DNA from: Planctomycetota bacterium | Lineage (GTDB): Bacteria; Planctomycetota; MHYJ01; WSZJ01 | Direction of reading: 5' to 3' | Assembly: GCA_016190145.1 (NCBI GenBank) | Contig: JACPRD010000135.1 | Coordinates: 28,680 to 92,679 of the forward strand | Length of the DNA stretch: 64,000 bases | Shown: piece after piece, positions 1 to 57,349 of the stretch | How positions within the stretch are numbered: position 1 is the stretch's first letter | Layout: each line of letters begins with the position of its first letter | Notes under the pieces: generated by a model | The model's database searches: none | What the model was told of the DNA's origin: nothing | What the model saw: only the letters and a program-made list of their open reading frames with translations | Position numbers and translations under genes: made by a program

Positions 1-494
1 AGTACCTGCTCGACTGGGAGCCGCGGGGCGAAAAGGGAATCCCGTACTTCCCCACTCCCGACATGTGCTGCGAGATCGTCGACTGGATGGAAATGCTGCA
101 CAACATCGACGACGCGCTCGGGGTGTGCGCCGGCATGGCGTCCTTCTGCCTGAAGCCGCCCTACCACATCAACAACTACCCCCAGCTGATTTCGGCCGCG
201 ACGGGGATGGACGTGGACCGCGACGAGCTCAAGCGGAAAGTGAACCGGAGCCGCAACCTGCACCGCGCGTTCAACAACCGCCGGGGGATGGCGCGGGCCG
301 ACGAGAAGCCGCCCAAGGACCACTGGAAGAACCGCTTCCCCGAGCTCGAGGAAAACCTGCTCACCACCTACTACCGGTACAAGGGCTGGAACGACAACGG
401 CATTCCGACGAGGAAGCGGCTGGAGGAGCTGGATCTGGGGTACGTCGCCGACGACCTCGAAAAGAGAGGGGTCCTGACCAATGGCCACGGTTAA
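1..494 (+). CDS. bamB: Class II benzoyl-CoA reductase W-pterin catalytic subunit (AOR family), 3' part only
   Basis: Frame open from base 3: YLLDWEPRGEKGIPYFPTPDMCCEIVDW..KPPYHINNYP..HWKNRFPELE..YYRYKGWNDNGIPT resembles the BamB C-terminus as I recall it; followed by bamC-I order. Confidence 0.88.
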   Translation, partial: YLLDWEPRGEKGIPYFPTPDMCCEIVDWMEMLHNIDDALGVCAGMASFCLKPPYHINNYPQLISAATGMDVDRDELKRKVNRSRNLHRAFNNRRGMARADEKPPKDHWKNRFPELEENLLTTYYRYKGWNDNGIPTRKRLEELDLGYVADDLEKRGVLTNGHG

Positions 495-1014
495 GAAGCG
501 CATCAGGACGATCAAGGTCGACGCGGACAAGTGCAACGGCTGCCGCGGGTGCGAGGTGATCTGCTCCGCGATCCATGCGCAGCCCAAGTACAGCAGCGTC
601 AACCCGGCGCGGTCGCGCATCCGGGTGATCACGCACCGGCTGCAGGACATCTGGCTGCCGGTGTTCGCGGGCGAGTACGCCCGCTCCGAGTGCGCGGGGC
701 GCGAGGTCTACACGATCGCGGGCAAGCAATACGACGAGTGCGGCTTCTGCCGGGCTTCGTGCCCTTCACGCGGGCTGTTCAAGGAACCCGACTCCGGGCT
801 GCCGCTGAAATGCGACATGTGCGAGGGGGAGGACAGGCCGCAGTGCGTGGAGTGGTGCCTGAGCCACGTCCTCACGTACGAGGAGCGGGAAGAGGAAGTA
901 GAGGAGGAGGCGGAGAAGCTGGAGGACCTGCAGATCGGGCTGGAGGCGCTGGCGGACAAGTTCGGGGTGGAAAAGGTGAAGGATGCGATGGCCCGGCTGA
1001 GCAGGAGCGAGTAG
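481..1014 (+). CDS. bamC: BCR 4Fe-4S subunit
   Basis: CNGCRGCEVIC, NPARSRIRV, CGFCRASC, CDMC..C..C; overlaps bamB stop. Confidence 0.87.
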   Translation: MATVKKRIRTIKVDADKCNGCRGCEVICSAIHAQPKYSSVNPARSRIRVITHRLQDIWLPVFAGEYARSECAGREVYTIAGKQYDECGFCRASCPSRGLFKEPDSGLPLKCDMCEGEDRPQCVEWCLSHVLTYEEREEEVEEEAEKLEDLQIGLEALADKFGVEKVKDAMARLSRSE

Positions 1015-1018
1015 TGAC

Positions 1019-2173
1019 ATGGAAACCAAGGCGCCGGTTCCGGAGATCGTCGACGAGGTGAAGGCGGCCGGCGGGCACACGTACCGGCTCTGCTACCAGT
1101 GCGGGAAGTGCGACGCGGTCTGTCCGTGGAACCGCGTCCGGTCGTTCAGCATGCGCAAGACGATCCGGGAGGCGTCGCTGGGCATCCCCGAGATAGAGAG
1201 CGACGACCTCTGGCGGTGCACGACGTGCGGGACCTGCCCGCAGAAATGTCCGCGGGGGGTCGACCAGATCAAGCTGGGCGTTTCGCTGCGCCGGGTCGCG
1301 ACGAACTACGACGTGCTCGGCGCTTCCGCGGGCGCGATCCGCTCGGCGAGGGGCAACCTCGCGACGCGGGGGAATCCTTTCGGGGAGGAGCGGGCCGCGC
1401 GGACGGGGTCGGCGGAGGGGCTGGCCGTGAAGCCGTTCGCCGAGGGGATGGAGATGCTGTTCTTCGGGTGCTGCTACCTCAGCTACGACGCGAGGCTGAA
1501 GAAGGTCGCGCGGGCGGCGGTCGAGATCCTGAACAGGGCCGGGGTCGACTTCGGCGTCCTGGGCTCCGCGGAGAGCTGCTGCGGCGAGAGCATCCGCAAG
1601 ACGGGCGCGGAGAAGGTGTTCCGGGACCTGGCGCGGGAGAACATCAAGGCGTTCATCGATCGCGGCGTGAAGAAGATCGTCGTCGCTTCGCCCCACTGCT
1701 ACGAGGCGTTCCGGAAGGACTACGCGGAGTTCATGGTGAACTTCGAGGTCCTCCACATTTCGCAGCTCCTGCTCCCCCTTCTCCGGGAAGGGCGGCTCAA
1801 GGTCACGGGCGAGTACCGGAAGAAGGTGACGTACCACGATCCGTGCTACCTGGGCCGGCACAACGGGATCTACGACGAGCCCCGGGAGGTTCTTCGCCAC
1901 ATCCCCGGCCTGGACCTCGTCGAGATGCGCGACACGCGCCAGAACAGCCTGTGCTGCGGCGGCGGGGGCGGCGGCGTGTGGATGGAGACGCCGAAGAAGG
2001 AGCGCTTCTCCAACCTGCGCGTGAAACAGGCTGTGGACGCCGGGGCCGCGGTGCTGGCGACGGCGTGCCCTTACTGCATCACGATGTTCGAAGAAAGCCG
2101 TCTCGGCCTCGAGGCGGAAGGCTCCCTGGAAGTCCGGGACATCACCGAGATCGTTCGCGACGTGACCCACTAA
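1019..2173 (+). CDS. bamD: HdrBC/HdrD-like Fe-S protein with CCG domains
   Basis: CYQCGKCDAVCP, CTTCGTCPQKCP, ESCCG, YHDPCYLGR, CCGGGGG, TACPYC. Confidence 0.87.
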   Translation: METKAPVPEIVDEVKAAGGHTYRLCYQCGKCDAVCPWNRVRSFSMRKTIREASLGIPEIESDDLWRCTTCGTCPQKCPRGVDQIKLGVSLRRVATNYDVLGASAGAIRSARGNLATRGNPFGEERAARTGSAEGLAVKPFAEGMEMLFFGCCYLSYDARLKKVARAAVEILNRAGVDFGVLGSAESCCGESIRKTGAEKVFRDLARENIKAFIDRGVKKIVVASPHCYEAFRKDYAEFMVNFEVLHISQLLLPLLREGRLKVTGEYRKKVTYHDPCYLGRHNGIYDEPREVLRHIPGLDLVEMRDTRQNSLCCGGGGGGVWMETPKKERFSNLRVKQAVDAGAAVLATACPYCITMFEESRLGLEAEGSLEVRDITEIVRDVTH

Positions 2174-2185
2174 AGGACGAGCCCC

Positions 2186-5100
2186 ATGCAGAAGACTCAG
2201 CGCGAAGTCCGCCAGGCAGACGTCATGGTGATCGGCGGCGGGATCAGCGGCATCCAGGCCGCGCTCGACGCGGCCGGCGCCGGCTTCAAGGTCACCCTGG
2301 TCGAGAAGGGACCGAGCCTGGGGGGCCACATGGCGCAGCTCGACAAGACCTTCCCGACGAACGACTGCTCCATCTGAATCCTCGCACCAAAAATGGTGGA
2401 GGTTCTCCGCCATCCGAACATCGAGGTCCTCTCCTACTCGGAAGTCAGCCGGGTGGAGGGATCCGCGGGGGATTTCCGCGTCTCCGTGACCCGCAAGCCG
2501 CGCTACATCGACGAGGACATCTGCACGGGCTGCGGCTCGTGCGTGAAGTACTGCCCCAAGCCGTCGCCCGACCTGTTCAACCGGGAGATCAAGGACGGAA
2601 AGGCCGTGCACATCTACTTCTCCCAGGCCATTCCGCTGGTCGCCTACATCGACGAGAACTGCCTCGAGCTGACCGAGGGCAAGTGCGACATCTGCCGCGG
2701 CGTGTGCCAGAACAAGGCCATCGACTTCCGGCAGACGGCGGAGACCGTGGAGATCCGGGTCGGGGCGATCATCCTGTCCACCGGGATCGCGCCGTTCGAC
2801 CCCGCGGCGGTGGAAGACTACGGCTACAAACGCTTCCCGAACGTGATCACCGGCATGGATTACGAACGCCTCCTCTCCGCGACCGGGCCGTGGCAGGGGC
2901 GCATCCTCCGCGCGTCCGACGGGAAACATCCCGGGAAGATCGCCTGGATCTCCTGCGTCGGTTCCCGGCGCGTCACCGCGGGAGAGCACAGCTACTGCTC
3001 CGGCGTCTGCTGCGCGTACACGCAGAAGCAGGTGATCCTGACGAAGGAGCATGAAGCCGACGCGGAATGCACCGTCTTCCACAACGACATCCGCGCGATG
3101 GGCAAGGACTTCGAGCGGTACTACCAGAGAGCGGCCGAACTCCCCGGCGTCCGCTTTGTCCGGGGCTACCCCGCCATCGCCGGCGAACGCCCCGATACTC
3201 ACAACGTCGTCCTGAGATACGCGACTGCGAACGACGGCGTGAAGGAAGAGGAGTTCGACCTTGTCGTGCTTTCCGTCGGCCTGAGCCCCTCCGCCGATTC
3301 CCGGAAGATCGCCGGCACGCTCGGGCTGGAGCTCAACGCGCACGGGTTCGCGCGGACGAGCTACGCGAATCCCCTCGGGACGTCCCGCGCCGGGATCTTC
3401 GTGAGCGGCGGCCTGCAGGGGCCGATCGACATCCCCGAGTCGGTCTTCGGCGCCAGCGGAGCCGGCGCGCAGGTCGGCGAGCTCCTCGACTACCGGCGGG
3501 GACTCCTGGCCGAAAAGCGCGTCTACCCGCCCGAGACGAACTGCGCCGGGAAGGAGCCGCGGATCGGCGTCTTCGTCTGCCACTGCGGCGAGAACATCGC
3601 CAGCGTCGTGGACACCCGCTCCGTCGTCGAGTACGCCCGCAAGCTGCCCAACGTCGTCCATGCCCAGCAACAGCTCTTCTCGTGCGCCAACAACTCCATC
3701 AACGAAATCCGGGAACTCGCGACGGGAAAGGGGCTCAACCGCGTCGTGATCGCCGCCTGCTCGCCCCGGACCCTCGAAGCCCTCTTCAGGGACACGCTCC
3801 GTGAAGCCGGGCTCAACCCGTACTTCTGCGAGATGGCGAACATCCGCGAGCAGTGCTCCTGGGTCCATTCGAAGCAGAAGGAAGCGGCGACGCAGAAGGC
3901 GAAGGACATCGTCCGGATGTCCGTCGCGCGCGCGGGACACCTGGAGCCGCTTCAGGGATTCGACCTCCCCGTCCACAAGACGACGCTCGTCGTCGGCGGC
4001 GGGATCGCGGGCATGACCTGCGCGCTGGCGCTCGCCCGGCAGGGATATCCCGTGCATCTCGTGGAGAAGTCGAAGGAGCTGGGCGGGATGGCCCGGCGGA
4101 TTCACGCGACGCTCGAGGGCATGGACGTGCAGGCGTACGTGCAGGAACAGGTCGGGGCGATCTACCGGCATCCGCTCGTCCACGTGTCGCACGGCGCGTC
4201 GATCAGGAGCGTGTCCGGCTACGTGGGCAACTTCACGACGGTCGTGGAGGCCGAAGGCCGCACCCGGGAGATCCGCCACGGCGCCGCCGTCATCGCCACG
4301 GGCGCGGACGTCCATCGCCCCGCCGAGTACCTCTACGGAGAAAACGAGCGCGTGCTCACCCACCTCGAGCTGGGCGAGCGCCTCGCGCTGAAGGACGCCG
4401 CCGTCGCCGGCGCCCGGAGCGTCGTCATGATCCAGTGCGTCGGCTGCCGGAACGCCGACCGCAACTACTGCAGCCGCGTGTGCTGCAGCCACGCCGTCAA
4501 GAACGCGCTGAAACTGAAAGAGCTCAACCCGAAAACGTCCGTCACGATCCTCTACAGGGACATGCGCACGTACGGGTTCAAGGAGGACTTCTATCGCGAA
4601 GCGGCGGACAAAGACGTCGCTTTCGCCCGGTACGAGCCGGAAAACAAGCCGCAGGTTGAAGCGGCCGTCAACGAGCAGGGGGAGCCCTGCCTCCGGATCC
4701 GCGTGGCGGATCCCATCCTGGGCTGCCAGCTCGAACTGACCGCCGATCTCGTGTCCCTCGCGGCCGCGGTGATCCCCTCCGCCTCCACACGGGAGATCGC
4801 TTCCCTGTTCAAGCTGCCGCTGAGCCCCGACGGATTCTTCAAGGAAGCCCACGTCAAGCTGCGCCCCGTCGAGTTCGCCACGGAAGGCGTGTACCTGTGC
4901 GGGATGGCCCATTACCCCAAGCACATCGAGGAGACGATCAAGCAGGCGTACGGCGCGGCGGGCCGGGCCATGACGCTCCTCGCCCACGACACCGTCGCGG
5001 CTTCCGGATCCGTGTGCGAAGTCAACGAGCCCGAGTGCGTCACGTGCGGCGCGTGCATCACCGCCTGCGCGTACGGGGCCATCGAATTCCACGAGGGCCC

Positions 5101-5248
5101 GGCCGGTAAGCGCGCCCGCGTGAATCCGATCCTCTGCAAGGGGGACGGGCTCTGCTGCACCAAGTGTCCGACGTCCGCCATCAGGATGAAGCACTTCACA
5201 CAGGAGTCGCTGTTGAGCCAGATCGAGGCGGCCGTCGCGCAGGTTTAG
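2186..5248 (+). CDS. bamE: HdrA-like flavoprotein, predicted selenoprotein (TGA 2375-2377)
   Basis: ORFs 2186-2377 and 2393-5248 are in one frame; [21 protein letters not shown] matches HdrA DCxxC; two Rossmann motifs (GGGISG, GGGIAG) and ferredoxin motifs. Confidence 0.9.
2380..2402 (+). promoter_or_regulatory. Candidate SECIS-like hairpin for bamE
   Basis: cctc-g-cacca-aaaa-tggtg-gagg right after the TGA; the loop lacks the usual G. Confidence 0.45.
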
Positions 5249-5262
5249 AGAGGAGAGGACCG

Positions 5263-6042
5263 ATGATCGCGGGCGTCGAATTCAGGCCGAAAATCCTCGG
5301 GCTCTTCTGCCACTGGTGAGCGTACGGAGCGGCGGACACGGCGGGAGTTTCCCGCCTCCAGTACGAGAGCGAGATCCGGGTCATCCGCGTGATGTGTTCG
5401 GGTCGGGTCGACCTGGACCTGATCCTCAAGGCGTTCGAGGTCGGCCACGACGGGGTGCTGATCGGCGGCTGCATGCTGAACCAGTGCAATTACGTGACGC
5501 AGGGAAACTACGACGCGCTGGGCAACACGTACATCGGCCGAAACCTGCTGGCGCGGATCGGTCTGAATCCCGAGAGGCTGGGCATCGAGTTCATGTCCGG
5601 CGGCGACGGCAAGCGGCTGGCCGACGCCGTCAACGGCTTCTCCGCGAACGTGAAGAAGCTGGGGCCGCTGGGCGAGGCGGAGGGGATCGGGAGGGCGGAG
5701 ATGGGCGAGGCCCTGGCGGCCGTCCGGAGCATGACGCCCTGGCTCAAGCTGGTGGAGCGCGAGAAGCTGCGCGTTCCCGAGCGGACGGAGGAGGGATACC
5801 ACAGGTTTTTCGCGAGCGAGGAAACGATGCGGCTCATGGACGAGTGGATCGGCGGCACCGTGACCATCGGCCGGATCCTGCACCTGCTCCGCCGGAAACC
5901 GCATTCGACGGGCGAGATCGCCGGATTCCTGAAGCTGAGCCCTTCGGAAGTCGCCCGGCACATGAATACCTCGTCCCGTCAGGGCTGGGTCGCGTACGAC
6001 ATCGACTCCCGCCGTTATTCGCTTCCCCTGGGCCAGGAGTAG
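5263..6042 (+). CDS. bamF: MvhD-like 2Fe-2S subunit, predicted selenoprotein (TGA 5317-5319), with C-terminal winged-HTH-like tail
   Basis: GAGGAG RBS, ATG 5263: MIAGVEFRPKILGLFCHW-TGA-AYGAADTAG..IRVMCSGRV, in frame with ORF 5389-6042; MvhD CxWCxY motif. Confidence 0.9.
5340..5356 (+). promoter_or_regulatory. Candidate SECIS hairpin for bamF
   Basis: ggcggga-gtt-tcccgcc; G-starting loop about 28 nt after the TGA. Confidence 0.6.
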
Positions 6043-6045
6043 ACC

Positions 6046-6498
6046 ATGGAAATGAAAACCATCGACGGCATCATCGAGCGTCACCAGGTCGAGCCCAGCG
6101 CGCTCATCCAGATCCTGCTGGAGATCCAGAGGGAGTACCACTGGCTTCCCCAGCCGGCGCTGCACGAGGTCGGCCGCCGGCTGCAGGTGCCGATGTCGCG
6201 CATCCAGCACGTCGCGACCTTCTACAAGGCGTTCAGCATGGTCCCGAAAGGGCGCCACCGGGTGAACATCTGCATGGGGACCGCATGCCACGTGCGCGGC
6301 GCTTCGCGCATCCTGGAGACCGTGCAGGAGCACGCGGGCGTCGGGCCGGGGGAGACGGACCTGGAGCACAAGTTCAGCGTCGAGACGGTCAACTGCATCG
6401 GCTGCTGCGCGCTGGGACCCGTGATCGACGTCAACGGGAAGATCCACGGCAGGTTGACCCGGGCGGAGACGGCTGGAGTGCTGGAGAGGTGCGAGTAG
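6046..6498 (+). CDS. bamG: NuoE-like 2Fe-2S subunit
   Basis: VATFYKAF, CMGTAC, CIGCCALGP. Confidence 0.86.
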   Translation: MEMKTIDGIIERHQVEPSALIQILLEIQREYHWLPQPALHEVGRRLQVPMSRIQHVATFYKAFSMVPKGRHRVNICMGTACHVRGASRILETVQEHAGVGPGETDLEHKFSVETVNCIGCCALGPVIDVNGKIHGRLTRAETAGVLERCE

Positions 6499-6506
6499 GG
6501 GGAACC

Positions 6507-8435
6507 ATGGCGAAATTCCTGACGCCCGAAGATCTGGAGCAGTTCCGGCGGACGCTCCTCTCCCAAAGGGACGCGAAGAAGCCCTGCGTTTCCGTCTGCA
6601 CGGGCACGGCGTGCCTCGCCAACAGCGCCGCCGAAGTCATGGAAGCGGTTTCGAGCGAGACCGCCCGGAAGGGACTTGCGGCGAGCGTGGACGTCAGAAG
6701 CACGGGGTGCCACGGCTTCTGCGAGCGGGGCCCGGTCGTGGTCGTCAACCCCGAGGAGACCTGCTATCTCGGCGTGTCGCCGAAGGACGCGACGGAGATC
6801 CTCTCGCAGACCATCGAGAACGGAAAGGTGGTCGACCGCCTGCTCTACGCGAACCCGGTCACGGGCGAGAAAACCGCCGTCGAGTCGGACATCCCCTTCT
6901 ACAAGGGCCAGACGCGGACTCTGCTTTCGAGCAACCTCCGGATCGACCCGAAGAGCCTGGACGACTACGTGTCGATCGGCGGGTACTCCGCGCTCAGCAA
7001 GGCGCTGTCCCGGCTGACGCCGGAGCAGGTCATCGACACGGTCAAGAAGTCGAAGATCCGCGGCCGGGGCGGCGCGGGTTTTCCGACGGGCATCAAGTGG
7101 GAAGGCTCGCGCCAGGCTCCGGGAGAGATCAAGTACGTGATCGTGAACGCCGACGAAGGCGATCCCGGGGCTTCCATGGACCGGACGCTCATGGAGGGAA
7201 ACCCGCATTCGATTCTCGAGGGGCTGATCATCGGCGGCTACGCCGTCGGCGCGCAGGAAGGATACGTCTACGTCCGGCAGGAGTACCCGCTCGCGGTGGA
7301 GAACATCCTGCTGGCGATCGAGCAGGCCGAGGCGCACGGCCTTCTCGGAAGGAACATCCTCGGTTCCGGATTCGATTTCGCCGTCAAGGTGCACCGCGGC
7401 GGCGGCGCGTTCGTGTGCGGCGAGTCGACGGCGCTGATGACGGCGCTGGAGGGGCGCGCGGGCGAGCCCCGGCCGAAGTACGTCCGCTCCAACGTCCGCG
7501 GCCTCTGGAACCGGCCCAGCGTGCTCAACAACGTCGAGACGTGGGCCAACATCCCGCTGATCGTCAACAACGGCGCCGACTGGTTCACGCGGATCGGGAC
7601 CGAGAACAGCACGGGCACCAAGATCTTCTCGCTCGTCGGCAAGATCGCCCACACCGGCCTCGTCGAGGTCCCGATGGGGATCTCCCTGCGCGACATCATC
7701 TTCAAGATCGGGGGCGGCATCCCCGGCGGGAAGAAATTCAAGGCGGTCCAGACCGGCGGCCCTTCCGGCGGATGCCTCCCGGAAAACCTGCTGGACCTCG
7801 GCGTGGATTTCGACGAGCTGGAAAAGGCCGGCTCCATGATGGGTTCCGGCGGCATGATCGTCATGGACGAGGACACCTGCATGGTGGACGTTGCCCGCTA
7901 CTTCGTTCATTTCCTCACCGACGAGTCCTGCGGCAAGTGCGTCCCCTGCCGCGAGGGCCTCCGGCAGATGGACAGGATCCTGACGCGCATCACCGAGGGT
8001 CAGGGGAAGGAAGGCGACCTCGAGATCCTCGAGGACCTGTCGGTCGTCCTCGAGGAGGCCTCGCTCTGCGCCCTCGGGAAGAGCGCCCCCAACCCGTTCC
8101 GGAGCACCCTTCGCTACTTCCGCCACGAGTACGAGGCGCACATCCGGGAGAAGCGCTGCCCGGCGCTGTTCTGCAAAAAGCTGGTTTCGTTCTACATCGA
8201 GCCCGACAAGTGCCGCGCATGCATGATCTGCATGAAGAAGTGTCCCGTCCACGCCATCGACGGGGCCAAGCGGAAGATCCACATCATCGATCAGAACACC
8301 TGCAACCATTGCGGCACGTGCCTGGAAGTCTGCCCCGCGAGGTTCGACGCGGTGCGGGCGATTTCCGGCCGGCCGGTTCCGCCTCCGATCGCCGAGGAGC
8401 GGAGAATGGTCGCCATCATGGGCAAGGAATCATGA
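6507..8435 (+). CDS. bamH: NuoF-like NADH/FMN-binding subunit
   Basis: ATG 6507; RGRGGAGFPTGIKW, NADEGDPG, CGESTAL, ESCGKCVPCREG, C-terminal 2x4Fe-4S. Confidence 0.88.
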   Translation: MAKFLTPEDLEQFRRTLLSQRDAKKPCVSVCTGTACLANSAAEVMEAVSSETARKGLAASVDVRSTGCHGFCERGPVVVVNPEETCYLGVSPKDATEILSQTIENGKVVDRLLYANPVTGEKTAVESDIPFYKGQTRTLLSSNLRIDPKSLDDYVSIGGYSALSKALSRLTPEQVIDTVKKSKIRGRGGAGFPTGIKWEGSRQAPGEIKYVIVNADEGDPGASMDRTLMEGNPHSILEGLIIGGYAVGAQEGYVYVRQEYPLAVENILLAIEQAEAHGLLGRNILGSGFDFAVKVHRGGGAFVCGESTALMTALEGRAGEPRPKYVRSNVRGLWNRPSVLNNVETWANIPLIVNNGADWFTRIGTENSTGTKIFSLVGKIAHTGLVEVPMGISLRDIIFKIGGGIPGGKKFKAVQTGGPSGGCLPENLLDLGVDFDELEKAGSMMGSGGMIVMDEDTCMVDVARYFVHFLTDESCGKCVPCREGLRQMDRILTRITEGQGKEGDLEILEDLSVVLEEASLCALGKSAPNPFRSTLRYFRHEYEAHIREKRCPALFCKKLVSFYIEPDKCRACMICMKKCPVHAIDGAKRKIHIIDQNTCNHCGTCLEVCPARFDAVRAISGRPVPPPIAEERRMVAIMGKES

Positions 8436-9064
8436 GCACAGTCCACCTGACAATCGACGGAAAGGACGTCGAGGCGGAAGAAGGAACGAGCCTGCTGGCG
8501 GCGGCCCGGAGCGCGGGAATCCCGATTCCGACGCTCTGCCACCACGACAAGCTCGAGGCGCTGGGCGGCTGCCGCCTCTGCATGGTGGAAGTGGAATCCC
8601 GTGGAAAGACGCGGCTCGTCGTCTCCTGCGTCTACACGGTCGAGAAAGGACTGACGGTCCGGACGCGGTCCGCGAAGCTGGAGCGGATCCGCAAGGGCAT
8701 CCTGGAGCTCCTGCTCGCCCACGCGCCGGACTCCCCGCAACTCGCCGAGCTGGCGCGCGAGTACGGCGCAGACCGGAACCGCTACGAGCCGGAATCCTTG
8801 TTCTGCATCCTCTGCGGTCTCTGCGTCCGCTACTGCGCCGAAGTCGTCGGAAAGCACGCGGTAGGTTTCATCGACCGCGGCATCCGCAAGGAGATCAGCT
8901 TCATTCCGGAAATCGCCGCGAAGGAGTGCGACGCCTGCAAGGCCTGCTTCCCGCTCTGCCCGACGTCGTATCTGCAGGCGGCTTACGTGCTGACGGGATC
9001 GCTCGTGTTTCCCGACGGGTGCTCCACTGCATTTCAGTCGTCCAGAGGGCCATCCTCGCCATGA
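8432..9064 (+). CDS. bamI: NuoG N-terminal-like Fe-S subunit
   Basis: ATGA overlap with bamH; IPTLCHH, GGCRLCMVE, CILCGLCVRYC, CDACKACFPLCP. Confidence 0.85.
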   Translation: MSTVHLTIDGKDVEAEEGTSLLAAARSAGIPIPTLCHHDKLEALGGCRLCMVEVESRGKTRLVVSCVYTVEKGLTVRTRSAKLERIRKGILELLLAHAPDSPQLAELAREYGADRNRYEPESLFCILCGLCVRYCAEVVGKHAVGFIDRGIRKEISFIPEIAAKECDACKACFPLCPTSYLQAAYVLTGSLVFPDGCSTAFQSSRGPSSP

Positions 9065-9419
9065 ATGCAGCGCAAGGAAAAGAGGCTCATTCGGAAAACG
9101 CGTACTTCTCGACGCAAGTCCTTGAGCACGCTCATCCTGCCCAACGCCCCCCCAACCTGGTGCAGGGCCGTTGGGGAGGGTGAGCGGGTTTCTCCCCATG
9201 CTCCTGTGAGCGGAGGTATCCCCCCCTCAAGCGAGCTTGCCGGCCAGGAGGCACTCGCGGATACCACACGGGCCCCCCGATGCCAGGTTCCCCCCCCTCG
9301 GGCAGTACGGGTTTCCCGGATGATCCAGAATCATGCGAAGTCTGGCATCGGTCAACTTATTGCTCCCCAGCGCAATCTCCACGAGAAAGGCCTCTGCAGT
9401 CGTGCTAGAACAACGGTCC

Positions 9420-11315
9420 ATGTCAAAGCCCCACTCGCACGATCAGCATGGGTCTCCGGAGGAAGATGCTGCACTGGCCCGCGAGCTTCTTGCCGAGGGG
9501 GATCTGCCGCACGCCATGTTCCACTTGGCCGGGGCGCTCGCCAGCGATCCGGCGAATGTTGAGTGGCTGAAGTTGTTCGATGAAATAGCAGGCGCCAGTC
9601 CGGATCCGCCGTCCCTCATTCCCGACAGTGGGGAGGGATTCTGGCACGGTCTTGCAGCATGCCGCTCACGCCTGCTCTACCGCTCAGGTCGACGGCACGA
9701 TGCCATGAGCCTGATGTTTCAGGTGATTGCCGCATTCCCTGCGCAGGATTATCACGTCTGGGCAGAGGAATGGGCGAAGGCGCCGGGTCAACTCCTGGAC
9801 GCACGACCGGTGTTCACGTTCTTCGGCGGCCTTTCCCAGCGATATTCGGGTGGCGTCGCAACGGCCGATGAACGAGCCGAACTGGAGCGGTTGCTTCCCC
9901 TTGTCGACTTGCTTTGCGAGAAACTCCCCAATGACGTTCTGCTGCAGGCTCACCGCGGCACGCTTCATAGAAAGGCGGGCCACCTTGGTGAGGGTGTTGA
10001 GATCACCGGTCGCGCCTACCGGCAGGGTCCTTCCTGGCAAACCGCGGTTCTCGCCGCCGGCTCTGCGAAGGCCAACGGAGACCGCGTCGCCGCACGCGCA
10101 TACTTCGAAAAGGCGCTTGGTCACGATCCCATGAATCTGTCTGCCCACCTCGACCTCGGGGACATGGCCGCGGAAGAAGGCGATTTCGCTGAAGCGCAGA
10201 AGCGATACGGGAAAGTCCTGGCGAGGGAACCGCACCATCCGTGGGCGGAGCCTTCCGCGGCGTACATCCGTTGGGCGACGGACCGTGACGCGACGTCGCT
10301 TGGGAGGCTCCGCGAACTCGCGAGTCAGCCCGGACCTGCGATGGACCGTGCGGTCGCCCTGATGGCGAATGTGCGGAACAGGACGGTCTTCGAGCGTTTC
10401 TTCTTTCCGCAGGAAGCCACGTTCAACTCCCTCATGCAGCTTGTCGACAGCTACCAGAAACAGGAAAAACCAATTCCGCGCGGGATGGTCTTGAACATCG
10501 GAGTGACTGCCTGCGAGCCACCCAGCGTCCGCCTCGCCGTCCGGCGGACGCTTCCCGATTGCAAGCTGAACATGTCCATCTCGAGCGTTCAGTCCCCGGA
10601 TCCCCGCTTGCCTTCTGGCGACGTCGACTTCCTGCTCTGGAAATTTGAGGGGACGGATCCCAGTCCCGCCGTGCCCGAGGTCGAAGGTCCGGCTCGGTCA
10701 GGTTTGGTTCGCATCGCCGCGTCCGAATTCGGGGTTGGCGATTGGAAGAGGTATTCCCGATCGCTGGTAGCGGAGATGCGTCCCAGCGATCCAGTTCCGG
10801 GAGTCCTCGGTTCCATGGTCCATCCACCCGGAGTCCCCGAAGGCTGCACTCACCCCGAATGGATGTGGATCCTCCGTGTCCAGCTTGCGGGCGCCTTCGT
10901 GCTCGCAGCGCTCGATGACGGGTGGAAGGCTTCGCGCCGGCGCAGCGCCCTCCTCTCGTTAGCCCGAGGCCCCCTCGACTGGACCGTTACTGCCGCGGTT
11001 GTCGCGCTGACGGAAGTCGCGCTTGATTGCCCTGAATCAAGGGAAGAGATCCGGGCTGAATTCGTGCGCATGATCGAACGCCCTCCCGAGCCGGGCTGGA
11101 CTTGCTGGATCCCTGCTCTCATCGAAGGTGCTCTCGAGATTCCCGGCCTCTCACCAGAGGAGAGATCGCGGCACCTGGAGGTGCAGCGGCAGCTGGCAGC
11201 GGCAGATCTCGATCTGAATAATCCGGAATACAGGCGCAAGCTGAAGGAGGCAGCGACTCAGCGCCCGGCAAAGCAGGGTTGCTTCGGCGTCCTACTCGCC
11301 CTTCTGGCTCCTTGA
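9420..11315 (+). CDS. TPR-containing hypothetical protein
   Basis: Long ORF with TPR-like helices (ARAYFEKALGHDP..AHLDLGD); more A/T third positions than neighbours; start uncertain. Confidence 0.65.
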   Translation: MSKPHSHDQHGSPEEDAALARELLAEGDLPHAMFHLAGALASDPANVEWLKLFDEIAGASPDPPSLIPDSGEGFWHGLAACRSRLLYRSGRRHDAMSLMFQVIAAFPAQDYHVWAEEWAKAPGQLLDARPVFTFFGGLSQRYSGGVATADERAELERLLPLVDLLCEKLPNDVLLQAHRGTLHRKAGHLGEGVEITGRAYRQGPSWQTAVLAAGSAKANGDRVAARAYFEKALGHDPMNLSAHLDLGDMAAEEGDFAEAQKRYGKVLAREPHHPWAEPSAAYIRWATDRDATSLGRLRELASQPGPAMDRAVALMANVRNRTVFERFFFPQEATFNSLMQLVDSYQKQEKPIPRGMVLNIGVTACEPPSVRLAVRRTLPDCKLNMSISSVQSPDPRLPSGDVDFLLWKFEGTDPSPAVPEVEGPARSGLVRIAASEFGVGDWKRYSRSLVAEMRPSDPVPGVLGSMVHPPGVPEGCTHPEWMWILRVQLAGAFVLAALDDGWKASRRRSALLSLARGPLDWTVTAAVVALTEVALDCPESREEIRAEFVRMIERPPEPGWTCWIPALIEGALEIPGLSPEERSRHLEVQRQLAAADLDLNNPEYRRKLKEAATQRPAKQGCFGVLLALLAP

Positions 11316-11490
11316 GTATTCCGTGATGACCGAGAAGCCATGCCCGAATCAATGGAGAAATGCTCTGGCTGTTCGTGACGCTCACCCACGCCGCAGAGTT
11401 GGCGAGGAGGCTCCGAGGGCAATCGATCGTGGCCGATGAACTCGGGCGATCACTTCTGTTAAGATGAAGCCGAACTTAGAGGAAATCGCC

Positions 11491-11751
11491 ATGAGTTCCT
11501 TCAACATCGATTGCCCGGACGACCTGCTCATCGCGCTCGGCTCGACGCCGCAGCAGTTTGAGCACGAGGCGCGCATGGCCATGGCGGCCAAGCTTTTCGA
11601 GCTGGGGCGGCTTTCCAGCGGGCAGGCGGCGCGGCTGGCCGGGATGGATCGCGCGAATTTTCTCCTGACGCTCTCGCGATTTGGAGTCGCGGCCATCAAT
11701 CTTGAGGGGCGCGACGTCGACGACGAGCTGGCCTACGGCCGCGGTGAGTGA
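11491..11751 (+). CDS. UPF0175 family antitoxin-like protein
   Basis: KLFELGRLSSGQAARLAGMDRANFL; GAGGA RBS. Confidence 0.85.
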   Translation: MSSFNIDCPDDLLIALGSTPQQFEHEARMAMAAKLFELGRLSSGQAARLAGMDRANFLLTLSRFGVAAINLEGRDVDDELAYGRGE

Positions 11752-12244
11752 GCCCGTCGTCGTCAACACGGGGCCGATTGTCGCGCTGAGCTGTTGCGGG
11801 TGTCTTTCGCTGCTGGCATCGCTTCATGCGCCGGCGATCATCCCCGAGGAAGTCAGCCTGGAAATCCGGCGGCTGGCCGCGAAGCCGGGATTCGCGCACC
11901 TCGCTTCAGGAATTCCGGGGCTTGAACTCCGCTAAGGCACCAGGCCTCCGGGTCCGATTCTCTCCGCATGGTTGGATCCCGGTGAAGCATCGGTCATCGA
12001 ACTCGCCACCGAGCTCGGCATCGGCCTGGTCCTCATCGACGAACGCCGCGGGAGGCTGGCCGCCCGTCGCGCGGGGCTGCGAGTCGGCGGAAGCGTCGGT
12101 GTCCTGCTCCGGGCAAAGACGTTGGGGCTCTTGCCCCTGGTCGGACCCAGAATCGAGGAAATGCGCCGGGCCGGCGTCTGGATCTCGAAGGAGTTGCAGT
12201 CGCGAGTGCTGGCGCAGGCCGGAGAAGGGCCGCAAACGCCGTAG
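11744..12244 (+). pseudogene. DUF3368 (PIN-like) toxin interrupted by in-frame TAA 11933-11935
   Basis: VVVNTGPIVAL..IPEEV..ELR-TAA-GTRPP..LDPGEASVIELA..LIDERRGR..GSVGVLLRAK in one frame. Confidence 0.8.
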
Positions 12245-12455
12245 CACAGCCTCGCCCCGCAAGAGACTGCAGCGCGCCGGCGCGGAGTTGCATGTCGACA
12301 ACGCTCAACAGGGACCGGGGGATAGGACGGGATACGGGGCGTCGACACAGGGGCGTCTCGGCGCTTGAATCACTGCCCACTCCGACAATAGAGTATGCGG
12401 CCAATCGGAGACACAGCCTCCGATTCCCGAGGTCCACTTCCCGAAGGAGCACACC

Positions 12456-13247
12456 ATGCCCGCAAAGACCAAATCCGCGCCGGCCGCGAAGTCGAAGAAA
12501 GCCCCCGCAACGCGCTTGTCGCTGGCCGAGGTAATGGCCACCCTCGAAAAGGCAGGTTCCGAGCAGACGCGGAAGACGTACGCTCGCCACGGCGCCCCGG
12601 AGCCGATGTTCGGCGTGAGCTTCGCGACGCTCAAGACGCTCTACAAGCGCATCGGCGTCGATCACGAGCTGGCGCTGGCCCTCTGGGAAACGGGCAACTT
12701 CGACGCGCGCAACCTGGCGGTGAAGGTCGTCGACCCGGCGCGGATGTCCCCCGCCGACCTCGACCGGTGGGCGAAGGCCCCGACGGCGCGCATGTGCCAC
12801 GGCTACGTCGCCGCCATCGCGTCGGAAGGCCCTCACGCGCGCGCGAAAGCCGACGCGTGGCTCGCCTCGCCGGACGAAGGCCTCCGGAGCGCAGGCTGGC
12901 TCCTGGTCGCCGCGATGGCCAACCGCGACGAATCCACGCCGGATTCCTGGTTCACCGGCCGGCTCGCCGAGATCGAGAAGTCGATCCGCACCGCCCCGAA
13001 CGAGCCGAAGGCGGCGATGAACCAGGCCGTCATCGGCATCGGCTTCCGGAATGCTTCCCTGCGGAAGGCCGCGACCGCTGCCGCGAAACGGATCGGTCCC
13101 GTGGAAGTCGACCACGGCGACACCGCCTGCAAGACCCCGGACGCCGCGGCGTACATCGACAAGGCCTGGGTCCATTCCCTGTCGAAGAAGTTCGAGAGCC
13201 CCGCGGCGCACGAGCGGACGCGCGAGTCCATGCGGACCCGCTGTTGA
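12456..13247 (+). CDS. AlkD-like DNA alkylation repair protein
   Basis: TRKTYARHG..FGVSFATLK..ELALALWETGNFDARNLA..VEVDHGDTACKTPDA. Confidence 0.8.
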   Translation: MPAKTKSAPAAKSKKAPATRLSLAEVMATLEKAGSEQTRKTYARHGAPEPMFGVSFATLKTLYKRIGVDHELALALWETGNFDARNLAVKVVDPARMSPADLDRWAKAPTARMCHGYVAAIASEGPHARAKADAWLASPDEGLRSAGWLLVAAMANRDESTPDSWFTGRLAEIEKSIRTAPNEPKAAMNQAVIGIGFRNASLRKAATAAAKRIGPVEVDHGDTACKTPDAAAYIDKAWVHSLSKKFESPAAHERTRESMRTRC

Positions 13248-14931: not shown

Positions 14932-15159
14932 ATGAAACGCACAAATCTTGTGCTTAGCGAGGATCTGCTGGAAGAAGCAACCCGCCTTTCCGGAGAGAAG
15001 ACCTATTCGGGCGCGGTCAATATGGCGCTTCGGGAGTTCATCCGGCGCATTCGGGCGCGGCGCATCCTGTCGCTTCAGGGATCCGGGCTCTGGCAAGGCG
15101 ATCTTCCGGCCATGCGATCGGACCGTCCGCGCCGGCGTTCGACGCAGGCGGGCCGGTGA
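14932..15159 (+). CDS. vapB: VapB antitoxin (RHH type)
   Basis: MKRTNLVLSEDLLEEA..AVNMALREFIRR..WQGDL..MRSDR; overlaps toxin start. Confidence 0.85.
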   Translation: MKRTNLVLSEDLLEEATRLSGEKTYSGAVNMALREFIRRIRARRILSLQGSGLWQGDLPAMRSDRPRRRSTQAGR

Positions 15160-15545
15160 TCCTCGTCGACACTTCCGTCTGGATCGAGACTCTGCGGGCG
15201 CGCAATCCGCTCTCGATCGAGTCGGTCCTGGATTTCGATGAAATTGTCACCTGCCTTCCCGTCGTTCAGGAGGTCCTGCAGGGCTTTCGGGACGAAAGTG
15301 CCTTCCGGGTGGCCCGGGATTCTTTCCTGGCTCTGCCCATCGTCGAGTCGCCCATTACGGTCGGGTTGGTCGAGGAGGCCGTGGGCCTCTTTCGGGCCGC
15401 CCGCCGGCAGGGGCTGACCGTCCGATCCTCCGTGGACTGCCTCATCGCCGCATGCGCGCTGCGCCATCAGCTGACCGTGTTCCATCGCGACCGGGATTTC
15501 CCGCTCCTGGCGCGAGTGTCCCCCTTGCAGCAGCGGAGCCTCTGA
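15156..15545 (+). CDS. vapC: VapC PIN toxin
   Basis: MILVDTSVWI, QEVLQG, VDCLIAACA, HRDRDF. Confidence 0.9.
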   Translation: MILVDTSVWIETLRARNPLSIESVLDFDEIVTCLPVVQEVLQGFRDESAFRVARDSFLALPIVESPITVGLVEEAVGLFRAARRQGLTVRSSVDCLIAACALRHQLTVFHRDRDFPLLARVSPLQQRSL

Positions 15546-30395: not shown

Positions 30396-31245
30396 GGACC
30401 TGGTGGCGGATCTGCGCGACGTGCGGGTCCGGGTTCGGAAGGAGGCGATCCGGGAGGTAGCGCTGAAGCGTGTCCGGAGCGCGGCGAACGAAGTGGCGCT
30501 GCGGCTGCGGGACGATTCGCCGCGCGTACGCGATCTCGCGTGCTGGGCGCTGGGGACGATGGGAACCCGCGCGCACGCCGCGCGGATCGCGCGTCGGCTG
30601 CGGGATCCCGACGGGTGGACCCGGTGTCACGCCGCGGAGGCGCTCGGGTGGCTGCGCGCCCGGCGGTTCGCGCCGACGATTGCGAGGCTGCTCGCCGACC
30701 ACAACTGGCTGGTTCGGGGCCACGCGGTGCTGGCGCTCGGGGACCTGCGGTCGTTGCGCCACGGGCGGCGGATCGCGGAGATGCTCGACGACCCGCATCC
30801 CGGTGTGCGGGCGCCGGCCGCGATGGCACTCGCGATGCTGGGCCGCCGGCACCGGCTGCCCGAGATCGTCCGGCTGCTCGATTCGCCGCGGAGCCTGACG
30901 GGCGCCGTGACGGCCCTCAATATCCTCAGGGATCATCCGCTCTACCGGAAGTTGCGGTCACGGAGAATACGTGCGGCGCAGGGCGACACGCTCCGGAGTT
31001 TGCTGGCCCGTGCCGGCGTGAGGTTCGGCGCGACACGCGCGGGCCGCAGATGGCTCGGCAGGCCGTTCATGAAGTACCGCGCGGTGGCGGGTTACGACAT
31101 CTACGGGATTCTCTGGGACGTCGCCGCCGACTTCGGGCCGGGCCGCATGGGTTACGTGGTTCGCAAAGGACGATTCGTGATCGCGGACATGGATGAGGCC
31201 GTCGCGGAACTCTCGAGGGACGCCTATTCGAGCCGCTCGATGTAG
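30385..31245 (+). CDS. HEAT-repeat protein, start uncertain
   Basis: Repeats LRDDSPRVRDLACWALG / LADHNWLVRGHAVLALG / LDDPHPGVRAPAAMAL. Confidence 0.7.
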   Translation: MARRDLVADLRDVRVRVRKEAIREVALKRVRSAANEVALRLRDDSPRVRDLACWALGTMGTRAHAARIARRLRDPDGWTRCHAAEALGWLRARRFAPTIARLLADHNWLVRGHAVLALGDLRSLRHGRRIAEMLDDPHPGVRAPAAMALAMLGRRHRLPEIVRLLDSPRSLTGAVTALNILRDHPLYRKLRSRRIRAAQGDTLRSLLARAGVRFGATRAGRRWLGRPFMKYRAVAGYDIYGILWDVAADFGPGRMGYVVRKGRFVIADMDEAVAELSRDAYSSRSM

Positions 31246-32576
31246 GAGATCCACTTCTTCTCGTACTCGTCCAGCTTCCCGTCCGGAAACACCGCCTTCA
31301 CCGCGTCGGCCCACGCGGTCCCCTTCACAATTTCCGCGAACAGCTTCCTGAAATCCTTCCGGAAAGCCTCGTTGTCGCCTCGCAGGGCGTAGTAGACGAC
31401 GGCCCAGGCCTGGGCGTAATGGGCGAGGACGTCGCCCGCTTCCCATTTGTCCCCGTCGCAGCGGAAGAAGTCGCGGAAGGGGACGTGGCGGAGCGCGGTG
31501 ACGACTTCCTTGATGCGTTCGTAGCGCGTGACGAAGTCGCCGCGCGATTTCACGAGGGTGCCGAGGGTGAGGCGGGAGCCGTCCTCGGAGACGTCGCCCT
31601 TGCCGACGAATTCGGCGAGGCCTTCGTTGATCCAGTCGGGGCGCTGGGTGGTGAGGACGTCGAAGAACTGGTGCCAGCCCTCGTGCCAGAAGGTGTCGAG
31701 GGTTTCGGTGCCGATGCCGCAGACCCAGCCGCCGCCCTCGCGGTTGTAGAGCTGGATGTACTTGAAGTTGGGGTCGAAGAACCCGAGGGTGCTTTCGTGC
31801 GTGTCGTCGTCGCCGGCGGCCTTGGCGAAGTCGAGGAACTCCTGCTGGTTGCCGAGGAAAAAGACGCGGCAGACCTTGCCTTTGGGCCACTGGGCCTCGG
31901 TCATGCCGGAGAGCTTCATGTATTCCTTCCGCGTGAGCTCGAGCATGTTGTAGACGTTCACGAGGTCGGCGGAGGGCTTGCAGAGCTGCTCCAGTTTGAA
32001 CTTCTGAACGCCGTCGGCGGGGTTGATCTTCGCGGCCTCGGCCTCGATTTTGTCCATCCCGGCGGCCGTCACGCCCACGTCCGAGATGACCTGGTAGTGG
32101 CCCAGCTTCCCGGTGTACTCCAGCTTCTTCCAGGCGTGCGGCCAGCGTTTCCGGTACGGTCCCTCGATCACCGCCCGCAGCCGCTTCGCGCGGTCGGCAT
32201 AGTCGGGGTCGATGGGCCCGTCGAGCAGCGCGAGGGCCTCTTCCCAGCGCCCGAACTCATGGAGCAGGTTCGCGTAATGGACTCGGAACCAGCAGTCCTT
32301 CTTGAGTTCCACGGCTTTCGCGAACGCCTCGAGCGCCTTCGTGTCCTGCCGCAGGTCCCAGTGGGCGTGGCCCTTGTTGCCCCACCAGACCCACTCGTCG
32401 TCGGGCTTCATCGTGCCTTTCGCGGCTTCGAGGACCGCGAGCGCCTCGGCCGGCTTGTCCTGGTCGATGAGGTCGATGGCCTTGTTGCAGGCTTTGATTC
32501 CCTGAAGCGGCGGGTCCTCCGCGAGGGCGGCGAGGGAGGAGAGGAGCAGGACTGCCGGGAGGAAGAGGCGGATCAT
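31224..32576 (-). CDS. Secreted TPR and DUF1570-like zincin peptidase
   Basis: Signal peptide, TPRs, HEGWHQ (HExxH), WINEGLAEF, YAQAWAVVYY. Confidence 0.8.
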   Translation of the reverse strand: MIRLFLPAVLLLSSLAALAEDPPLQGIKACNKAIDLIDQDKPAEALAVLEAAKGTMKPDDEWVWWGNKGHAHWDLRQDTKALEAFAKAVELKKDCWFRVHYANLLHEFGRWEEALALLDGPIDPDYADRAKRLRAVIEGPYRKRWPHAWKKLEYTGKLGHYQVISDVGVTAAGMDKIEAEAAKINPADGVQKFKLEQLCKPSADLVNVYNMLELTRKEYMKLSGMTEAQWPKGKVCRVFFLGNQQEFLDFAKAAGDDDTHESTLGFFDPNFKYIQLYNREGGGWVCGIGTETLDTFWHEGWHQFFDVLTTQRPDWINEGLAEFVGKGDVSEDGSRLTLGTLVKSRGDFVTRYERIKEVVTALRHVPFRDFFRCDGDKWEAGDVLAHYAQAWAVVYYALRGDNEAFRKDFRKLFAEIVKGTAWADAVKAVFPDGKLDEYEKKWISYIERLE

Positions 32577-32624
32577 GGGCCGCTGAGAGTGTTGCATGTT
32601 GAACGGGGGCGGATCAACCGGCGG

Positions 32625-32655
32625 GTTCGGCGTTCGGCGTTCGGAGTTCGGCGTT
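32625..32655. repeat. GTTCGG(C/A) heptamer x4
   Basis: gttcggc gttcggc gttcgga gttcggc gtt. Confidence 0.9.
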
Positions 32656-32688
32656 GAAGCTTTGCGATGTCGGAATCCGATAACTCGC

Positions 32689-32716
32689 TTGACATCCGTT
32701 AGTCTTGTGATATCAT
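32689..32716 (+). promoter_or_regulatory. Possible sigma70 promoter
   Basis: TTGACA-N16-TATCAT with TG extended -10. Confidence 0.4.
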
Positions 32717-32834
32717 TTGCTGCGGTTGATGCCTGTGATTCCAACTTGTCGCCGGGCGTCCCCTCCCGCAGCGGTCCCGCCGCCCGGCGCAAAACCGCCA
32801 CTCACACGAGGGGACCTCCTGCTATGTTGAGGGT

Positions 32835-57076: not shown

Positions 57077-57349
57077 GGTGGCGGCTCCAGGATTCCGAGG
57101 TTGTGTTGCAATTGCGGGGCGCAAATCAGGTGCCCCCGGTCGACAGGGGGCGGGTGCCTCCGGGCAATATACGGGAAATTGGGCGCACGGGAGCTTCGGT
57201 TCCGTTCCGCCCGAACGCGCCGGATGCAAGCCCTTCGAGATCAAGATGTTAGAAATTCCCCAATCGGACGCAAATTCCCGCAACTCACTTCCCAGCCAGG
57301 GGTTCATAATCCGGATCTAAACCATCCTTTTTGTCCCCATGGGGGCCCC

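Follow-up and report, generated by a model that had tools for sequence, protein, structure and literature searches.

A putative eight-subunit class II benzoyl-CoA reductase operon, horizontally acquired by a groundwater planctomycete

Planctomycetota are better known for polysaccharide use and anammox. The question raised by the DNA stretch presented above (64,000 nucleotides in all, hereafter the window) is whether the bam genes at its left end form a complete class II benzoyl-CoA reductase (BCR), whether they truly belong to a planctomycete, and how they came to be there. In the passages of PMC12096430 that deal with its occurrence, this enzyme is associated with Desulfobacterota that are strict anaerobes and with a small number of Firmicutes. 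We give a probability of roughly 0.7 to the reading that the window carries part of an operon, intact in all eight subunits, for a class II BCR (an ATP-independent enzyme that depends on tungsten and selenium), and that a planctomycete has acquired this operon horizontally, the activity and substrate of the enzyme being predicted from sequence comparison. As for the narrower statement that the operon genuinely encodes a class II BCR and belongs to the host planctomycete, we are highly confident of it.

The window corresponds to C103:28680-92679, C103 being a 113,289-bp contig of the host genome G000, a metagenome-assembled genome (MAG) of 5.35 Mb in 217 contigs with 68% GC, 85% completeness and 1.3% contamination. 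The genome was compared with seven genomes of the same genus (the congeners, G002, G003, G004 and G005 among them) and with genomes of the same order, to which G008-G010 belong, and 171 bamB-containing loci were retrieved for gene-order comparison.

The complete unit, made up of a TetR gene, a radical-SAM gene and bamBCDEFGHI, occupies C103:25456-37743 (gene starts refined), and positions 1-9064 of the window hold it from the last 163 codons of bamB through bamI in consecutive order. Its genes are as follows.

L001:13457-14119: TetR gene, upstream of the radical-SAM gene
C103:26115-27206 (L001:14116-15207): radical-SAM/SPASM gene between TetR and bamB, with CxxxCxxC near its start
1-494, + strand: 3' part of bamB, tungsten-pterin catalytic subunit (AFOR_C in the window, AFOR_N and AFOR_C in the full gene, which is C103:27203-29173, 656 aa, and begins 1,476 bases before window position 1)
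481-1014, + strand: bamC, polyferredoxin of 177 aa with 12 Cys (Fer4 family matches), overlapping the end of bamB
1019-2173, + strand: bamD, HdrD-like, with two CCG domains and 2x[4Fe-4S] (CCG 121.7 bits, Fer4_8; two CxxCxxCxxxC motifs)
2186-5248, + strand: bamE, 1020 aa, two HdrA units fused into one chain with permuted domains, and one selenocysteine (Sec) codon (HdrA2, 830 bits)
5263-6042, + strand: bamF, MvhD/FlpD-like adaptor, extended at its C-terminus by about 120 aa (helix-turn-helix, HTH) and with Sec19 (FlpD and HTH_5 matches)
6046-6498, + strand: bamG, NuoE/HoxE-like [2Fe-2S] subunit (2Fe-2S_thioredx, 163.5 bits; HoxE and NuoE family matches)
6507-8435, + strand: bamH, NuoF-like FMN/NADH subunit with C-terminal 2x[4Fe-4S], starting with the ATG at 6507 (Complex1_51K, SLBB, NADH_4Fe-4S, Fer4; nuoF_fam, 477.6 bits)
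8432-9064, + strand: bamI, resembling the NuoG N-terminus, with [2Fe-2S] and two [4Fe-4S] motifs (Fer2_4, 71.5 bits; two CxxCxxCxxxC motifs)

The order from partial bamB to bamI, which the original prediction had proposed, is thus confirmed by the Pfam and NCBIfam scans of the plus-strand frames. The bam genes are tightly packed, with overlapping start and stop codons, ATGA overlaps also join TetR, the radical-SAM gene and bamB, and all eight bam frames are open except for two conserved TGA codons. All eight genes occur together in 18 of the 171 bamB loci, and the five closest loci share the order. BamC is 56-75% identical to the product of the gene following bamB in other loci and, judging from its Cys count, probably carries three [4Fe-4S] clusters; BamI is 62-75% identical across the 18 loci with all eight genes. 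In a search against the PDB, three separate stretches of BamE matched the HdrA structures 8rvu and 5odc in permuted order, and residues 6-137 of BamF aligned to MvhD chains. Promoter and terminator scans gave nothing usable after bamI or before TetR.

The base composition of the operon had been described as GC-rich like that of the host genes, which is the case: GC is 0.66 over positions 1-8000, compared with 0.63-0.74 elsewhere in the window, and codon usage is indistinguishable from that of 17 host genes of the window (relative synonymous codon usage, r = 0.963, against 0.971 when the host genes are split in halves). The GC content at third codon positions (GC3) of bamB reaches 0.935, as opposed to 0.48-0.64 in four other loci, L149 and the trio L031, L033 and L045, whose titles read Desulfobacterota or 'delta proteobacterium' for all members of the trio.

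BamB aligns over its full length (residues 1-654) with the BamB of Geobacter metallireducens (4z3w_A) at 1001 bits, whereas the next structure, the aldehyde oxidoreductase (AOR) 1aor_A, gives 212 bits and no ordinary aldehyde oxidoreductase exceeds that value. The residues C322, E251, E257, H260 and C299/C302/C306/C535 are all retained, and Cys322, located in the motif MMKCFSK, is invariant in a 12-sequence alignment. In the relevant passages of PMC12096430, Cys322 is described as the tungsten ligand conserved in all BamB proteins and YdhV and absent from other AORs, Glu251, His255, Glu257 and His260 as zinc or proton-relay residues with zinc ligands that are called invariant; the protons for the ring are said to come from Glu251 and His260. 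By alignment and tree position, BamB belongs to the BCR clade of the AOR/WOR family, and the assignment to class II made beforehand is upheld.

The open reading frames (ORFs) of bamE and bamF appear truncated at their N-termini because each contains an in-frame TGA codon, a feature that the original prediction overlooked. The elements concerned are listed below.

2375-2377, + strand: in-frame TGA in bamE, residue 64, read as Sec (read-through motif TNDCSIU)
2393-2413, + strand: hairpin resembling a selenocysteine insertion sequence (SECIS), with a 9-bp stem and a GUU loop, starting 18 nt past the first base of the bamE TGA
5317-5319, + strand: in-frame TGA in bamF, residue 19, read as Sec (read-through motif FCHWU)
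5341-5355, + strand: possible weak SECIS hairpin 3' of the bamF TGA, with an energy no better than chance

Among 81 related loci scanned, the BamE position is occupied by U in 24 bamB-linked loci, in the context CS[MI]U-IL[AS]PK, and by Cys in five loci, in the HdrA-like context CSMC-IESPKF, while the BamF motif reads C.WU in 25 bamB-linked loci and C.WC in one. The bamE fold (2375-2434) has an energy of -20 kcal/mol with z = -3.37, and only one of 200 shuffled sequences folded as well. The host encodes tRNA-Sec at C12:1841-1933, with selA (547 bits) directly adjoining it at the start of contig C12, and selD at C181:15734-16657 (361 bits). The latter has an in-frame TGA of its own, so SelD is probably itself a selenoprotein. 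The bam genes would provide a clean example of a selenoprotein operon able to spread only to hosts already decoding UGA as Sec.

The host is a Planctomycetota MAG from groundwater and not a member of the Desulfobacterota. The DUF1501 protein encoded at 59205-60590 has its two nearest relatives at 95% and 83% identity, and its named relatives include a 'Planctomycetota bacterium' protein (79%) and a 'Candidatus Brocadiae bacterium' protein (73%); since the named relatives of this flanking gene are planctomycete, so is the host, as had been supposed from the sequence. Only the submitter's label ('Candidatus Brocadiae') suggests a class.

The position of the operon on the chromosome was compared by tblastx with the corresponding region of two congeners. 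In G004, about 250 bp separate the genes that match C103:240-7245 from the next gene, which matches C103:41192-41926 (window 12513-13247), the flanking matches closest to the gap being C103:6389-7245 and C103:41192-41926. About 34 kb of C103 (approximately 7250-41190), including the bam unit, is therefore missing at the G004 site. To the right of the gap, G004 stays syntenic up to about window position 35300 and G003 up to about 53000. Besides the bam unit, the variable stretch contains kinase and TPR genes and a hydrolase gene, with another TPR gene and a UPF0175 gene at its right end. Its right end and the point where host synteny resumes are located as follows.

9065-12510: right remainder of the variable stretch, with a TPR gene at 9333-11315, an antitoxin-like UPF0175 gene at 11464-11751 and one further ORF
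12456-13247: DNA_alkylation gene (Pfam), where synteny with the host lineage resumes (tblastx against G004 and G003)

BamB was found in none of the seven congeners; G009, from the same order, has a copy that is 64% identical. No tRNA genes were found on C103, nor any integrase or transposase family among the ORFs scanned in the variable stretch. The TPR_12-rich gene at C103:21926-23300 belongs to a huge multi-copy family with 51-98 DNA matches in each of five congeners at 64-86% identity, and when five congeners were searched with the DNA of the 20-kb stretch, such TPR copies swamped the result, leaving only the DNA_alkylation anchor.

Four DNA sequencing runs (X1-X4) from one groundwater study, assembled with another assembler, hold the stretch; they may include the source sample and so are not independent of it. 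An exact 4501-bp X1 contig crosses from the hydrolase gene through TetR and the radical-SAM gene into bamB, an exact 1667-bp contig crosses the bamI-TPR junction, and in X1 the read-contig depths of all long pieces are alike (10.8-18.4). With host synteny on both sides and contigs bridging both junctions, the contig, whose possible chimerism had been raised beforehand, is not chimeric. The variable location, the lack of BamB in the congeners and the nesting of BamB among Desulfobacterota-dominated sequences (see below) together indicate that the operon was gained by horizontal transfer as a compact unit in an otherwise syntenic chromosome. An old transfer had been suggested; the transfer stands, and on its age the evidence is divided, as codon usage is host-like and yet no congener carries BamB.

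Among the matches listed, the closest BamB proteins are 93, 92, 89 and 88% identical and come from short metagenome contigs, relatives at 88% and 85% are named planctomycete MAGs by NCBI, and the named Desulfobacterota (Syntrophobacter, Desulfocarbo, Desulfomonile, Syntrophorhabdus) are found at about 80%. A metagenome scan gave full-length matches at 83% or less and one fragment of 2.7 kb at 93%, adding no planctomycete context. A FastTree tree was built from 117 rows: 78 of 80 genome-contig loci (L053 and L056 were left out, their extracted proteins being shorter than 550 aa), 31 of the 120 listed database matches, G009, six AOR outgroups and the window BamB. The latter falls in a five-row clade within an 82-row, Desulfobacterota-dominated clade that includes the named aromatic degraders NaphS2 and Desulfosarcina cetonica. 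In a quick IQ-TREE tree of 66 hand-chosen rows, including ten other BamBs of the phylum and that of G009, it lies in a 33-row, mostly Desulfobacterota clade (SH-aLRT 100), with the other BamBs of the phylum elsewhere. The AOR outgroups are split off by a branch with a support of 100 in both trees, which place BamB inside the BCR clade, as the original prediction had expected. An approximately unbiased (AU) test rejects a single clade of the window BamB and the other BamBs of the phylum (delta lnL 610, p = 3e-52), the group having been defined after seeing the tree, and the root lies on a very long outgroup branch and is not trustworthy. Our reading of the trees is that the donor may have been Desulfobacterota-like, or an intermediary, and that the transfer was probably a different event from those that brought BamB to other members of the phylum.

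In an even sample of the phylum, a BamB-clade gene (E <= 1e-150) is present in 18 of 401 genomes and 17 of 288 genera, so the carriers are a scattered set and G000 is not a singleton; G299 has two such genes. Canonical BamA (TIGR03200 above its cut-off) occurs in 101 of the 401 genomes, with 87 of the 288 genera matched at E <= 1e-80, and given this excess over BamB many of these organisms may use another ring reductase. A full-text literature search, with subscription journals and supplements outside its coverage, returned no paper describing a class II BCR in Planctomycetota. The passages of PMC11704145, PMC8329499 and PMC5852087 that bear on the enzyme assign none to the phylum, although their supplements could list such genes; PMC11704145 reports two Desulfobacterota MAGs in which a class I BCR occurs alongside a class II BCR.

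Genes that may belong to the pathway around the enzyme are located elsewhere in the host genome, two clusters of them on contig C106.

C106:12028-15766: Oah-like crotonase (205 bits), short-chain dehydrogenase/reductase (SDR), Dch-like crotonase (172 bits) and Had-like zinc-dependent alcohol dehydrogenase (242 bits), all below equivalog cut-offs
C106:29021-33099, - strand: class I bcrCBAD-like four-gene cluster, about 13 kb from the Oah-like cluster

The large subunits of the second cluster are closest to the families BcrB (332 bits, cut-off 487) and BcrC (310 bits, cut-off 421), and its two ATPase genes match the acyl-CoA dehydratase activase domain model TIGR00241 best, followed by BcrA (196 bits, cut-off 578) and BcrD (162 bits, cut-off 313). 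The BcrB-like gene is kept in all seven congeners, where it shares contigs with the Oah-like gene, and in G009 it shares a contig with bamB. On C106 an SDR gene, a thiolase pair and a BbsA-like gene follow the class I-like cluster. The Oah-like crotonase is likewise kept in all seven congeners and in four of four same-order genomes, with or without BamB. The possibility that it is the BamA of this host was considered and rejected: it reaches 205 bits where the cut-off is 464, is present in seven congeners that have no BamB, has MenB as its nearest structures, and is classed by the Atlas as a generic enoyl-CoA hydratase.

Two genes exceed the cut-off (375 bits) of the benzoate-CoA ligase family TIGR02262, namely C47:15210-16736 with 623 bits and C31:9776-11293 with 525 bits, and as TIGR02262 is a subfamily model it does not fix the ligase substrate. 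The C31 type is present in all seven congeners, the C47 type only in G000 and G005. The C31 ligase lies in a cluster (C31:1947-11293) with genes for a creatininase-like protein, an SDR, a Rid-family protein, an enoyl-CoA hydratase (NF006107, 365 bits, above cut-off), an acyl-CoA dehydrogenase and a flavoenzyme with an iron-sulphur cluster resembling old yellow enzyme and BaiCD; this cluster may serve aryl- or alicyclic-acid metabolism. In a coherent, albeit unproven, picture, the genus would have possessed an aryl-CoA route of the ATP-dependent, class I-like sort, along with a lower pathway of divergent type, before G000 added the ATP-independent enzyme.

A number of results weigh against a functional benzoyl-CoA reductase gained and used by this host. 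Canonical BamA/Oah was not found in the host genome (best TIGR03200 matches 195-205 bits, cut-off 464), nor was canonical Dch (TIGR03189, 172 bits, cut-off 292) or Had (TIGR03201, 242 bits, cut-off 339), whereas in the control all five reference BamB-carrying Desulfobacterota have BamA at 537-719 bits, and 15 of the 18 BamB-positive genomes of the phylum have it above the cut-off, the exceptions being G000, G009 and G100. TIGR03200 likewise had no match in the congeners G002, G003 and G004 or in the same-order genomes G008-G010. The Oah-like gene of C106 occurs in every congener without BamB and has no tie to the operon, MenB-type enzymes are closest to it among solved structures, and the class I-like subunits of C106 are all below equivalog cut-offs. 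In BamB, position 255, one of the four zinc ligands called invariant, is Thr, with His at 254; the motif MVHTDEKWH is shared by 41 of the 117 tree rows, the Geobacter-type KVHDEKWH being found in two, so Thr255 is probably a common variant and not a defect. The bamF fold (5317-5376; -20.5 kcal/mol, z = -0.74) is matched by 46 of 200 shuffled sequences, and selB was not found in the 85%-complete host genome. The selB gene is above cut-off in 19 of the 21 genomes searched (the host and 20 relatives), including all seven congeners, which makes an assembly gap the likeliest cause of its absence. At that completeness, a result of 'not found' is weak in both directions. The suggestion that this is an anaerobic aromatic-degrading lineage stays a conjecture, the best matches to BamA, Dch and Had all being below their cut-offs in the host, and the bamA, bamQ and bamR genes proposed for searching yielded no canonical copies. 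On balance we still lean, with some reserve, towards a role of the operon in aromatic-acid degradation in the host.

Three other explanations have to be set against the reading of an acquired and intact benzoyl-CoA reductase. The operon could be an acquired passenger in a host with no complete pathway, intact but silent or in the course of being lost, as the absence of BamB from all congeners, the position within the variable stretch, with kinase and TPR genes around it, and the failure to find canonical BamA, Dch, Had and selB in G000 would allow. We regard this as improbable in view of eight frames that are open apart from two conserved TGA codons, close packing with overlapping start and stop codons, host-like codon usage, which argues for long residence under selection, and the existence of relatives with 88-93% identical BamB, two of them named planctomycete MAGs. 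An artefact of assembly or binning, in which Desulfobacterota bam genes were joined to planctomycete DNA, might be suspected from a MAG of 217 contigs whose nearest named cultured carriers, among the matches listed, are Desulfobacterota. It is very hard to reconcile with a single 113-kb contig that shows host synteny to the left and right of the insertion, with exact contigs of the other assembler, possibly from the source samples, that cross both junctions at similar depth, with a codon usage identical to that of the host genes, and with a bamB GC3 above that of L031, L033, L045 and L149; we consider it extremely improbable.

The class II BCR reaction is reversible. The substrate could be another aryl-CoA, namely an analogue of benzoyl-CoA that bears a substituent, or the enzyme could mainly oxidize the dienoyl-CoA to benzoyl-CoA and so serve alicyclic-acid metabolism instead of benzoate degradation. 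Many genomes have several BamB paralogues (at least 569 relatives among 603 pattern-matched stretches, besides the pair in G299), the lower-pathway genes of the host are non-canonical, and the C31 acyl-CoA dehydrogenase shows a weak resemblance to cyclohexane-1-carbonyl-CoA dehydrogenase (191 bits, cut-off 650). Set against this, the substrate-side residues E251 and H260 as well as C322 are kept and BamB lies in the 82-row clade that includes NaphS2 and Desulfosarcina cetonica, and we rate this explanation a little below that of a silent passenger. A wider proposal, that the lineage degrades aromatic acids anaerobically by a non-canonical lower pathway which lacks BamA and uses an Oah/Dch/Had-like cluster kept throughout the order, with this member, which also has SodC and a heme-copper oxidase, choosing between a class I-like and an acquired class II reductase according to the energy or oxygen regime, and with the radical-SAM/SPASM gene, translationally coupled to its neighbours TetR and bamB, encoding a hitherto undescribed factor that matures or assists the tungsten enzyme, is speculative and in our opinion rather unlikely.

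The radical-SAM gene itself was not found in the five congeners searched (a search without a positive control), and a homologue lies upstream of bamB in only one of the 171 loci (L035, 38% identity). Its Atlas matches are generic, mostly viral clusters.

If the reading of an acquired and intact benzoyl-CoA reductase is correct, electron flow would be expected to follow that of the G. metallireducens complex. BamGH would take up electrons from NADH and reduced ferredoxin, BamI and the Sec-bearing adaptor BamF would relay them to the bifurcating FAD of BamE, and from there low-potential electrons would pass through BamC to the tungsten-pterin of BamB while high-potential electrons would leave through BamD. 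BamB would then reduce benzoyl-CoA, made by one of the two benzoate-CoA ligase family enzymes, to cyclohexa-1,5-diene-1-carbonyl-CoA, and this product might enter the non-canonical lower pathway of the host through the Oah/Dch/Had-like cluster of C106.

The rest of the window is occupied by genes of the host, of which the DUF1549/1553, DUF1501 and DUF1570 genes had been noticed from the sequence and are all recognized by Pfam.

15156-15545: PIN-domain gene, separate from the UPF0175 gene and further to the right (Pfam)
31224-32801: DUF1570 (Pfam)
33281-34462 and 59205-60590: DUF1501 (Pfam)
43342-43950: SodC, periplasmic-type Cu/Zn superoxide dismutase (Pfam)
56753-59044: DUF1549/DUF1553 (PSCyt2 and PSD1; Pfam)

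The remaining window also encodes DUF1800, Ser/Thr kinases and an FGE-sulfatase domain (Pfam), and heme-copper oxidase subunit I is encoded at C183:2154-3602 (498 bits). SodC and this oxidase subunit thus share a genome with an oxygen-sensitive tungsten enzyme, and the exposure to oxygen earlier read from SodC is plausible.

With BamB in 18 and BamA in 101 of the 401 genomes, the phylum may hold a largely unreported reservoir of anaerobic aromatic-ring metabolism, which bears on aquifer carbon turnover, on natural attenuation and on the interpretation of bamA/bamB marker-gene surveys. Two loose ends of this picture deserve attention, the lower pathway, which is non-canonical, and the radical-SAM gene coupled to bamB.

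Compared with known systems, the operon resembles most closely the Bam[(BC)2DEFGHI]2 complex of Geobacter metallireducens (PDB 4Z3W-4Z40 for BamBC), with which it shares the eight subunits and their order, the BamB residues Cys322, Glu251, Glu257 and His260, and a BamC with 12 Cys. According to the passages of the cryo-EM preprint 10.64898/2026.04.10.717634 that describe these subunits, the BamE of that organism is a fused HdrA dimer with a domain permutation and a Cys59-Cys62 pair, and its BamF has Sec19 and a winged HTH and is more than 100 residues longer than MvhD; the planctomycete proteins share the fused, permuted BamE and a BamF with an MvhD part, an HTH extension and Sec at position 19. 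The planctomycete BamE has C61-x-x-U64, which by position alone may correspond to the Geobacter Cys pair. Unlike G. metallireducens, the host belongs to Planctomycetota, its BamB has His254/Thr255 in place of His255, a radical-SAM/SPASM gene is inserted between TetR and bamB, and canonical bamA, bamQ and bamR were not found in its genome.

The closest loci (L138, L137, L157, L034 and L139) are from uncultured organisms, L034 being titled an Acidobacteriota MAG, and have the eight genes in the same order, with identities of 83% for BamB, 68-73% for BamC, 66-69% for BamD, 70-72% for BamE, 57-66% for BamF, 62-68% for BamG, 66-74% for BamH and 68-75% for BamI. TetR is upstream in L138, L034 and L137, the radical-SAM gene in none of the five, and bamB GC3 is 0.64-0.92 as against 0.935 in the planctomycete. 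The other BamBs of the phylum are 61-67% identical to that of the window and lie elsewhere in the tree, with the order TetR, bamB, bamC, bamD in seven of the ten loci retrieved. In G009 (C37) and G071 (C26), only a short 2x[4Fe-4S] domain comes after bamBCDEF, bamGHI being missing from the vicinity, and a TetR match is upstream only in G071.

Individual subunits are also related to widespread electron-transfer modules: BamD, BamE and BamF match the HdrD, HdrA and MvhD families of HdrABC-MvhAGD, and BamG, BamH and BamI match NuoE, NuoF and the N-terminus of NuoG in NuoEFG/HydABC. Unlike these Hdr and Nuo modules, the planctomycete operon is without hydrogenase or Nuo membrane subunits, includes an AOR-family tungsten subunit, and has a BamE that is permuted and twice the length of HdrA. 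It is thus a known enzyme system extended to an unexpected host and not a new kind of system.

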